Below are positions 62,906 through 63,665 of a DNA stretch of 64,000 bases, piece by piece. Position numbers and translations under genes: made by a program. The number at the start of each line of letters is the position of its first letter. Within the stretch, counting starts at the first letter, position 1. This DNA comes from an uncultured bacterium. GTDB taxonomy: Bacteria > Verrucomicrobiota > Kiritimatiellia > RFP12 > UBA1067. Below the pieces are notes generated by a model. It searched no databases and was not told the DNA's origin. It saw only the letters and a list, made by a program, of their open reading frames with translations. Where the stretch lies: NCBI GenBank assembly GCA_902770045.1, contig CACXRO010000017.1:9369-73368 (forward strand). Direction: 5' to 3'.

Positions 62906-62965
62906 TCGCGGCACTTTGCGCGGCAGTTTACGCGGCACTTTCCGCGGCAGTTTGCGCGGCAGTTT
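62906..62965 (+). repeat. Five tandem 12-mers (N)CGCGGCA(G/C)TTT
   Basis: Read directly from the sequence, upstream of the lipoprotein gene. Confidence 0.95.
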
Positions 62966-62987
62966 GACAGGCAGAAATGGAGGAGAA

Positions 62988-63596
62988 ATGAAACACTCGA
63001 AGTTGGTTCTTGGTTTGGTCATGTTGCTCTCCGCGGCAGTTTTGGTTGGATGTGGCGAGAAGAAGGCGGCAAGCTCGTCGGTTGCCGAGAAGCCCAAGTT
63101 CGGCATCGCCGCGATGTCGGACGAGGACAAGGCTTACTTTGCTTTCAGCTTCACGACGCTGGGCACGGTGCCATACGGGAAGATCATGCCAGAAAGCCTG
63201 TTCAACAACCTGCTGTGCGGACAGAAGCTTCAGGAGGGCCAGCAGTTTGTTGCGTTCGGGGCGCCGGAGAAGGGCATGAAGCAGAATGCCAAATATCCGG
63301 AATGGCTGCGGGTCAAGAAGCTGATGGTGGAGGTGCCGACGCGGCGCATAGTCTGCGCGAGGGGCCGTGCTGGCCCGTTTGCCAGCAAAGCGGCGGTGCA
63401 GGCGTATCTCGATGCGGAGATTCGTCCGGGCCTCAACAGCGAGATCTATGTCACGAAGATCGCGGAACCCGACGCAGACGAGGCGTTGCGGGTTCTCTGC
63501 GAGTCGAATTTCCGCACCGAGTATTCGCTGAGCATCGCCCTGACCGAAGTCACCACAAACGAGTTCTGGATCGACACCGTCGCCATCGCCCAATAA
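62988..63596 (+). CDS. Hypothetical lipoprotein
   Basis: RBS GGAGGAG, lipobox VLVGC; bracketed by 12-mer arrays. Confidence 0.75.
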   Translation: MKHSKLVLGLVMLLSAAVLVGCGEKKAASSSVAEKPKFGIAAMSDEDKAYFAFSFTTLGTVPYGKIMPESLFNNLLCGQKLQEGQQFVAFGAPEKGMKQNAKYPEWLRVKKLMVEVPTRRIVCARGRAGPFASKAAVQAYLDAEIRPGLNSEIYVTKIAEPDADEALRVLCESNFRTEYSLSIALTEVTTNEFWIDTVAIAQ

Positions 63597-63665
63597 CCGC
63601 GGCACTTTCCGCGGCAGTTTGCGCGGCAGTTTGCGCGGCAGTTTGCGCGGCAGTTTGCGCGGCGG
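63597..63665 (+). repeat. Five and a partial tandem 12-mers CGCGGCAGTTTG
   Basis: Array begins at the base after the stop codon. Confidence 0.95.

Follow-up and report, generated by a model that had tools for sequence, protein, structure and literature searches.

A Tandem 12-mer at the Joints of Gene Cassettes and Promoter Modules in an Uncultured Kiritimatiellia Bacterium: A Possible Linker Repeat

Introduction

In a stretch of 64,000 nt from an uncultured bacterium of the Kiritimatiellia (GenBank assembly GCA_902770045.1, contig CACXRO010000017.1; hereafter, the window), a small lipoprotein gene is enclosed on both sides by tandem arrays of the 12-bp sequence CGCGGCAGTTTG, and further copies of this 12-mer are dispersed over the same DNA, which raises the question of what such a short repeat does at the places where it is found. 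The shuffling of single genes and the rewiring of promoters in bacteria without integrons are poorly understood, especially in the uncultured lineages of the gut and rumen. A preliminary description of the window had proposed that the 12-mer marks the boundaries of accessory genes and constitutes a protein-binding or recombination signal, resembling iterons, Chi, or uptake sequences, that may underlie the traffic of cassettes in this genome. The comparison presented here leads to a related answer. Since the 12-mer is located at the joints between genes and modules and close relatives differ exactly at these joints, it is most likely the seam of a reshuffling process. The reading that we prefer, to which we give about an even chance, is that the 12-mer would serve as a linker repeat for the recombination of cassettes and promoter modules, the default mechanism being ordinary processes driven by homology. 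As one short and recognizable sequence would mark the seams, such shuffling could be traced in metagenomes by counting units, cataloguing their neighbours, and finding empty sites.

The window corresponds to C17:9369-73368 of a metagenome-assembled genome (MAG) of 2.27 Mb in 87 contigs, with 64.7% guanine plus cytosine (GC) and 85% completeness, designated here as G000. Gene calls in G000 are crude, and all the genomes compared are short-read assemblies.

Anatomy and Polarity of the Arrays

Within the window, CGCGGCAGTTTG has 18 matches with at most one mismatch, compared with 0.87 expected, a number attained in 0/100 shuffles. The units of the array upstream of the lipoprotein gene (62907-62966) follow each other in the order CGCGGCACTTTG, ..AGTTTA, ..ACTTTC, ..AGTTTG, and ..AGTTTG, and the ATG is located 22 nt past the end of this array. 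The open reading frame (ORF; 62989-63596) comprises 202 codons, with a signal peptide and the lipobox LVGC, and matched no family in a Pfam search, being considered an orphan. Between both arrays there is only a ribosome-binding site (RBS) and this ORF. The downstream array begins 1 nt past the TAA, its first unit CGCGGCACTTTC is kept with the gene in every other context examined, and its degenerate sixth unit is CGCGGCGGAGGT (63658-63669). Thus, the arrays of at least five units first described on both sides of the gene were recovered with 5 and 5.5 copies (Table 1), together with all the dispersed sites listed at that time, the one at 34763-34786 on the minus strand being weak. Moreover, the units are contiguous with a period of 12 and have no spacers, in agreement with the earlier statement that this is not CRISPR. 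A translated repeat was rejected as an explanation, since the two arrays lie in different frames and outside the real ORF.

Over the whole of G000, 40 exact copies of CGCGGCAGTTTG were counted in 2.27 Mb, and the spacing from one CGCGGC to another peaks at 12 bp, with 228 pairs versus 33-89 at the neighbouring spacings of 9-15 bp. The search definition fixed CGCGGC at positions 1-6 and T at position 10, and allowed A/G at position 7, G/C at 8, T/A at 9, T at 11, and G/C/T at 12. With a stricter definition of the family, 61 arrays were found at ~56 loci, nearly all of them non-coding, and most arrays hold only 2 units. The repeat is spread over at least 18 contigs, beside unrelated chromosomal genes. 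A regular-expression scan for arrays adjacent to an RBS was too noisy for single units and provided no usable genome-wide count.

The arrays are strictly polar. They run from ...CAC-TTC units to ...CAG-TTG units and, among those containing both types, CGCGGCAC... (AC-type) precedes CGCGGCAG... (AG-type) in 18, the reverse order occurs in 0, and 5 are mixed. Position 12 is C in 30/89 first units versus 4/89 last units, and the base preceding the array is C in 60/89. Therefore, the array looks like the joint of two different ends and not like a homogeneous satellite. The unit is devoid of dyad symmetry, and no signal of RNA or DNA folding was obtained: folded as RNA with their flanks in four constructs, the arrays gave z values of 0.30, 1.30, -0.07, and 0.50, no better than shuffles. 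Therefore, the repeat acts as a sequence and not as a hairpin, and this absence of fold sets the arrays apart from REP (repetitive extragenic palindromic), Correia, attC, and terminator-type repeats. An RNA or DNA structure, a terminator, or a REP-like hairpin was rejected on these grounds.

Reuse of Cassettes in Different Neighbourhoods

Homologues of the lipoprotein with 68-91% identity are encoded on rumen metagenome contigs from independent assemblies, and the gene is found in at least five different neighbourhoods (L146, L147, L148/L149, L155-157, and the window). In each context, the gene ends with ...AATAA-C-CGCGGCACTTTC, followed by more units or by a hairpin element of ~49 bp (element D, CGCATATCCCCCGACCAAAGGTCGTCCGCAACGCGGATGCACTGGCAGGGGTGCAGTTTG), and its RBS GGAAAGGGGGAGAA is directly preceded by units or by an element D ending in ...GCACTTTG. 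Homologues with 51-52% identity in other organisms have no 12-mers. The low-GC block of the window that includes the lipoprotein gene (56.4-63.6 kb) has no counterpart in the genomes G019, G047, and G041, where only dispersed repeats match.

A second, unrelated family of secreted proteins of 165 aa shows a layout like that of the lipoprotein in four contexts and, at L164, its gene is headed by the same G-module (Table 1) and array as the lipoprotein gene of the window. Together, both small secreted-protein genes occupy approximately nine neighbourhoods, almost always in the order stop codon, 1-6 units, RBS, and ATG. Furthermore, L147 and L165 are rows of small ORFs, encoding an MmeI fragment or GmrSD, a 129-aa zinc-finger protein, the 165-aa protein, and the lipoprotein, whose spacers of 41-54 nt hold nothing but the stop codon, 0-6 nt, 1-3 units, and the RBS. 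At L146-L148, L155, and L164-L167, the RBS and the first codons ATGAAACACTCGAAGTTGGTTCTT (MKHSKLVL) are common to cassette ORFs that are unrelated and, therefore, the shared joint reaches into the region coding for the signal peptide. Promoterless single-ORF cassettes in one orientation are, in sum, reused in differing orders at L147, L165, L155, L148, L146, L164, L167, and in the window.

Arrays as Points of Difference between Close Relatives

The sister genome of G000, G019, has a median identity of 96.7% to it over long alignments. In front of dnaG, G000 contains 2 units and G019 contains 7, in flanks that are otherwise 98% identical and encode identical DnaG N-termini. The units of G019 are adjacent identical pairs, and the unit proximal to the -10 box is the same in both genomes, while other species of the genus have the same dnaG promoter and no array. 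Unit counts also differ between close relatives at C26:166 (2 vs 4), C9 (1 vs 2), and tatA (1 vs 2 and 4). Minisatellites or variable-number tandem repeats (VNTRs) consist of tandem units of ~10-60 bp, and the 12-mer is a VNTR by definition, its copy number differing at the same locus between close relatives.

Not only the number of units but also the surroundings of the arrays differ. At many loci, the homology of G000 to G019, RUG14537, or rumen contigs, with 96-99% identity in the flanks, ends 0 nt from an array. At L096, the left flank is that of C54 in G000 and the right flank is that of C8, and breaks of homology at the edge of an array also occur at L009, L032, L043, L092, L101, and L104. 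The preliminary description had suggested comparing empty with filled sites, and the tatA locus offers such a comparison. A single unit separates geneX from the tatA leader in G000, while G019 shows two array junctions, namely geneX and 4 units on one contig, and 2 units and the tatA leader on another. As read from the assembled contigs, this is the pattern of an empty versus a filled site.

In the comparison of synteny, 696 kb of G019 were aligned to G000. Out of 29 arrays of G019, 3 are syntenically spanned, 10 fall at the end of an alignment, and 16 are unaligned; the corresponding numbers are 44, 23, and 23 for 90 TGGTATAAT promoters without arrays, and 70%, 2%, and 28% for 5000 random positions. 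The difference between arrays and promoters is significant in Fisher's test (p = 1.6e-4), with loci that are not fully independent, two genomes that are both MAGs, and a G000 that is 85% complete, and the size of the contrast counts for more than the p-value. Arrays are, thus, located at the exact points where close relatives differ, and the same genes are joined to different neighbours. Therefore, the link with cassette traffic, already suspected in the preliminary description, is real.

Possible Role of the Arrays as Linkers

According to the linker reading, 1-7 head-to-tail units would join the parts of a modular intergenic mosaic. These parts would be of three types: firstly, promoterless ORF cassettes (stop codon, units, RBS, and ATG); secondly, portable promoter modules, in which the last unit would run into the extended -10 box TGGTATAAT; and, thirdly, small non-coding modules, i.e., (GTTGAAAG)n arrays, a 22-mer, and a hairpin element within a unit. 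Because the same repeat of 24-72 bp is present at many joints in one orientation, arrays would recombine with each other, deleting, inserting, or exchanging whatever lies between or beside them. This could occur by unequal or Campbell-type homologous exchange, by slippage, or by exchange with imported DNA, and the number of units would be altered by slippage. The comparison shows how the arrays are built, that their copy number varies, that they coincide with breakpoints of homology, that cassettes are reused combinatorially, and that the units are polar. We infer that exchanges have the arrays as their substrate, and that recombination driven by ordinary homology would be enough without a dedicated enzyme. 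If no such enzyme exists, the 12-mer would be a clear natural example of modular genome evolution driven by micro-homology linkers, extending to another phylum what is known of intergenic mosaic elements in Neisseria and of the promoter stem-loops of T4-type phages (see below).

Several points weigh against this reading. Exchange is judged from compared assemblies, both G000 and G019 being MAGs built from short reads, several comparisons have ancestry in common, and loci that are orthologous do not count as independent observations. Moreover, RecA-dependent recombination usually needs a minimum length that arrays of 12-24 bp just reach or fall short of, and arrays of two units are the majority. 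The strict polarity and the precise edge after ...TTTG look more like a defined site than like a patch of homology. Finally, breakpoints could fall at arrays if these were the terminal parts of modules moved by another mechanism.

Such features lead to an alternative that we regard as unlikely, in which a dedicated recombinase or transposase has its specific site in the array, or in a 24-bp dimer of one AC-unit and one AG-unit, giving an integron-like system with a 12-bp direct repeat replacing attC. Besides the polarity (18 vs 0), the precise edges, and a length of 12-24 bp that is short for RecA, this would account for ORF cassettes that are promoterless and headed by an RBS, each followed by the site. 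It would also account for element D, a hairpin element at a fixed point within a unit: its 8 copies in G000 each directly follow a 12-mer unit, and the element has CGC at its beginning and GCAGTTTG at its end, and thus gives the impression of an insertion inside a unit. The distribution between strands has a bearing on this possibility as well. The motif is on the locally G-rich (leading) strand in 38/42 loci of G000, compared with 67% of co-directional intergenic regions and 70% of promoters, and the difference remains after matching for local gene orientation, which suggests a replication-strand bias, the GC skew of MAG contigs being only a proxy. Biases of this kind occur in single-strand, replication-coupled transposition. 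However, in G019 alone the bias is weak (21/25 arrays vs 74% of promoters), the unit has neither dyad symmetry nor a fold, and arrays also precede core genes where no cassette is evident. Moreover, no recombinase gene was found beside the arrays: G000 has 4 tyrosine-recombinase matches and 3 weak Y1-transposase matches, which lie at distances of kilobases or on other contigs.

A dedicated enzyme, if there is one, would represent a new recombination system whose site is very small and looks programmable. It is improbable, in our estimation, that the arrays belong to an undescribed cassette system of rumen Kiritimatiellia, functionally parallel to integrons and without attC or IntI, that uses a polar 24-bp site (CGCGGCACTTTC then CGCGGCAGTTTG) and possibly a single-strand, replication-coupled recombination activity. 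The parts exchanged in such a system would be promoterless RBS-headed ORFs, promoter modules, and hairpin modules.

Promoters, Modules, and Genes Associated with the Arrays

Under the linker reading, the modules next to the arrays would be the parts that are joined. In G000, the 5' neighbours of arrays include (GTTGAAAG)n arrays (7), the G-module (7), and GGGGACAGnC palindromes (5), while the 3' neighbours include the 22-mer ATTTCGTCCGCACCGTAATCTC (6), (GGTTGGGT)n arrays (3), and element D (6). The G-module is ~65 bp in length, with the sequence AAAAGGGTCnGACCCTTCTGTATATGTTTTACTGTATAwGCTTG.... The stop codon of the upstream ORF is at most 10 nt before the array at ~11/56 loci, and an extended -10 box is found downstream within 80 nt in 25/61 arrays, of which 6 have it within 5 nt. 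The positions just after a stop codon or just before a promoter, as described at first, are therefore real for a part of the arrays, and 'almost always' was too strong. Orientation with local transcription, by contrast, is observed at most loci, as had been claimed. Among arrays with discordant neighbours, 8-9 are oriented with the downstream gene and 5-6 with the upstream gene, so neither neighbour alone explains the orientation.

Pfam matches of the genes downstream of arrays include DnaE, DnaG, GlnA, Lnt, HisG, TatA, MazG, HsdR, and a Dcm-type methylase, and low-GC genes are in mild excess at these positions (16/49 vs 14% of all genes in G000). The proposal that the 12-mer marks the edges of accessory genes is not tenable in this form, and an association with accessory genes only was rejected, since arrays also head dnaE, dnaG, glnA, lnt, hisG, tatA, and mazG.

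The housekeeping promoter of G000 is an extended -10 box that lacks a -35 element, with 298 occurrences of TGGTATAAT, usually followed by ACGC, and a generic upstream flank, (C/G)CGGGAAwTwTGG, in which a GC block is followed by an AT block. CGCGGC is present 14-16 nt before TATAAT in 33/358 of the promoters (~9%), and the register CGCGGC-N8-TATAAT, as at 10435-10478, is the preferred one across G000. Therefore, the unit can form the upstream flank of the promoter itself. The layout at 5206, with a unit and a stub upstream of a TGGTATAAT promoter, recurs at C60:345. The ATG of dnaG is only 9 nt past the -10 box, which suggests that its mRNA is leaderless.

This fixed register, together with the plan of GC block and AT block shared with the generic flank, would fit a second alternative, in which the units are putative sites for a lineage-specific DNA-binding protein, be it a regulator, a nucleoid or insulator protein, or a contact of RNA polymerase, that tunes or insulates the -35-less promoters. 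Arrays are also oriented like the promoter they precede, and tandem direct repeats are typical of cooperative binders. We nevertheless consider it quite unlikely that binding is the role of the units: they stand in that register at only ~9% of the promoters, other species of the genus use the same promoters without arrays, and the change from 2 to 7 units before the essential dnaG leaves the flanks unchanged. Moreover, many arrays are located between ORFs without a promoter, or after stop codons far from any -10 box, and a period of 12 bp is out of helical phase.

Distribution among Genomes

The dimer, with at most two mismatches, has 29 occurrences in G000, 22 in G019, and one or two in each of three further species of the genus, and was found in none of 36 other relatives, being present in only 5/41 genomes searched, G000 included. 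In a search of 185,579 species, each represented by one genome, the exact dimer was recovered only in RUG10963 (taken to be G019) and RUG14537; G047 also carries the 12-mer family. Out of 33 metagenome contigs with the exact dimer, five clearly belong to the rumen family. Identical dimer arrays are also present in marine (GC 0.48), coral-associated, and other contigs (L028-L060) with unrelated flanks, and in several of these the opposite strand is open as QTAA/LTAA-type coding repeats. A wide phylogenetic distribution was rejected, as the marine and coral dimers are probably cases of chance identity in a very large database. The 12-mer family, thus, is confined to a narrow clade, composed of G000, G019, RUG14537, G047, and a few rumen contigs. 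A phage-borne repeat was also rejected, with no match in viral contigs. G006 and G014 also have the layout of G-module, array, and -10 box, with slightly different units, e.g., CGTGGCAGTTTG, and other species have different short-unit arrays in intergenic DNA.

Such a distribution could also result if the 12-mer were a passive minisatellite, whose unit came from the -10-proximal part of a portable promoter, spread with mobile modules, and expanded by slippage, neither promoting recombination nor binding anything. The composite of G-module, array, and -10 box common to G006, G014, and G047, the restriction of the family to a narrow clade, and the differing short-unit arrays in the same positions, also in other species, are consistent with this possibility, and the duplicated adjacent units look as if made by slippage. 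However, a passive repeat should be absent from both ends of ORF cassettes that are unrelated and from almost all joints of the cassette rows, nor would it be expected to have a strict internal polarity, and arrays show a stronger loss of synteny than other promoters do. For these reasons, we find this explanation distinctly doubtful.

Relation to Known Repeat Systems

As a linker, the 12-mer would have its closest counterparts among repeats that flank exchangeable modules. In the intergenic mosaic elements of Neisseria (NIMEs), short dRS3 repeats border many RS modules in dynamic arrays, which are proposed to favour both the exchange with imported DNA and the insertion of array-flanked genes (Bentley et al. 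2007, PMC1797815). In both cases, a short repeat (20 bp in dRS3, 12 bp here) flanks unrelated intergenic modules, and sometimes genes, in numbers that vary between strains. However, dRS3 is an inverted repeat, ATTCCC-N8-GGGAAT, not arranged head-to-tail, and a known target of phage integration, whereas the 12-mer is asymmetric, tandem, polar, and co-oriented with transcription, and also serves as an intercistronic spacer before the RBS. The likeness is limited to the role of a flanking linker. In T4-type phages, recombination between repeated regulatory cassettes, the promoter stem-loops (PeSLs), explains insertions and deletions between close relatives (Arbiol et al. 2010, PMC2839356). There, as here, repeated sequences flank small orphan ORFs in hyperplastic regions, with insertions, deletions, and replacements between relatives, but a PeSL is composed of a phage promoter and a terminator stem-loop of tens of bases, and the 12-mer is unstructured, tandem, and chromosomal. 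Moreover, mini-circles are known on the PeSL side only. Dispersed repeats can also have a dedicated nuclease that modulates transformation, as in Ssn/NTS (PMC11893778); unlike the 12-mer, the NTS repeat is palindromic.

Integrons, including chromosomal arrays and clusters of attC sites lacking integron-integrases (CALINs), share with the cassette rows the one-orientation arrangement of mostly promoterless single-ORF cassettes that have the same type of boundary and are reordered. However, 12-mer arrays do not fold and contain no imperfect palindrome of the attC type, their boundary is a variable number of direct repeats, and the 12-mer also precedes promoters of core genes. No IntI or attI was found beside the arrays: of the four PF00589 matches in G000, the nearest to an array is on C22 at a distance of ~6 kb, in a genome that is 85% complete and with the IntI-specific insert not examined. 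The resemblance to integrons is, thus, one of behaviour only, as the attC structure and an adjacent IntI are lacking. REPs and bacterial interspersed mosaic elements (BIMEs) are likewise intergenic mosaics of a few short motifs in a set order, located after gene ends, and hotspots of rearrangement and insertion, but REPs are palindromic hairpins mobilized by REP-associated tyrosine transposases (RAYTs), whereas the 12-mer has no palindrome and no RAYT was found beside the arrays.

Contingency repeats and other promoter-associated VNTRs, such as the 7-bp repeats upstream of the Haemophilus hmw genes, whose number differs between strains, resemble the 12-mer in being short tandem units upstream of genes that vary between close strains. 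Nevertheless, those are locus-specific, and the 12-mer is found at ~56 loci, before essential genes, and coincides with structural breakpoints. CRISPR repeats are 23-50 bp in length and separated by unique spacers of similar length. Uptake sequences (DUS/USS) occur at approximately one copy per kb, on both strands, in genes and intergenic DNA, and are shared across a genus or family, and the 12-mer is too rare for the uptake-like role that had been proposed, besides being restricted to intergenic DNA. Similarly, iterons are direct repeats of 17-22 bp at the origin of a replicon, beside the rep gene whose product binds them, and the comparison with iterons does not apply to ~56 dispersed chromosomal loci that are not clustered at a replicon origin. 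Thus, the 12-mer is not a CRISPR, a REP/BIME, an iteron set, or an uptake sequence. Chi is an oligomer over-represented across the genome, in coding DNA as well, with a skew towards the leading strand; as to the proposed likeness to Chi, the 12-mer has a strand skew but is rare, tandem, and largely intergenic.

Features of the Window and Minor Observations

The coordinates of the arrays and modules are collected in Table 1.

Table 1. 12-mer arrays and associated modules in the window, and sites of element D elsewhere in G000 (TRF, Tandem Repeats Finder).
Feature	Position	Strand	Remarks
One exact unit and CGCGGC stub	5206..5223	+	50 nt 5' of TGGTATAAT promoter
Three units	10435..10470	+	Last T/G run merges into extended -10 box GGTATAAT (10471-10478)
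Units at 11850 and 11897	11850..11914	+	Bracket 22-mer module ATTTCGTCCGCACCGTAATCTC; second unit followed by CGCGGC stub
Two units (12978, 12990)	12978..13001	+	Directly after TGA; distance to upstream ORF 0
Three units (AGATTG, AAATAA, AATTTG)	33171..33206	-	
Two weak, degenerate units	34763..34786	-	
Two units (54633, 54645)	54633..54656	+	Right after (GTTGAAAG)n array, within portable promoter repeat
One unit	56099..56110	+	Right after (GTTGAAAG)n array, in second copy of the 54633 promoter repeat
G-module (AACAAAAGGGTCCCTTCCGTATATGATTAACTGTATAAGCATAG...CAACCAT)	62841..62906	+	Before upstream array of lipoprotein gene; precedes 12-mer arrays at many loci in several species
Upstream array, five in-register 12-mers	62907..62966	+	TRF period 12, 5.0 copies, score 92
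Promoterless cassette	62967..63597	+	RBS GGAGGAGAA, lipoprotein ORF, TAA-C end
Downstream array, five units (63598-63657) and degenerate sixth	63598..63669	+	TRF 5.5 copies, score 118
Element D	C24:20639-20700, C52:8450, C54:26237, C69:4525, and others		Sites in G000

Upstream of the G-module, a -10 box of the TGTATAAT type (GGTGTATAATGG, ~62666-62677) is followed ~100 nt later, with no ORF between them, by a strong hairpin and T-run, CCGCGACCCTT...AAGGGTCGCGG-CGTTTCTT, at 62771-62816. The region 62660-62816 is a candidate for a small RNA or for the terminator of the upstream operon.

On the other side of the lipoprotein gene, two AT-rich, operator-like copies (TTTAGAATGGTAATTACTATTCTAAA and TTTAGAATGGCAATTAAC) are located at 63714-63760, before the gene of a DUF4143-type ATPase region, and the only sigma-70-like matches of a simple promoter scan fall there. 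At 63790-63861, GGGGACAGnCCCC palindromes alternate with 12-mer-like units to form two copies of a 24-mer, GGGACAGTCCCCGCAGCACCTCCG, and the same palindrome precedes 12-mer arrays at several other loci. Elsewhere in G000 (C43:8324-9223), the membrane helix AAAVVAALCAAVV of a 300-aa protein is the in-frame translation of a three-unit array, which is flanked by the motifs GGGGTCTGTCCCC and GGGACTGTCCCC and looks like a repeat module that was co-opted as coding sequence.

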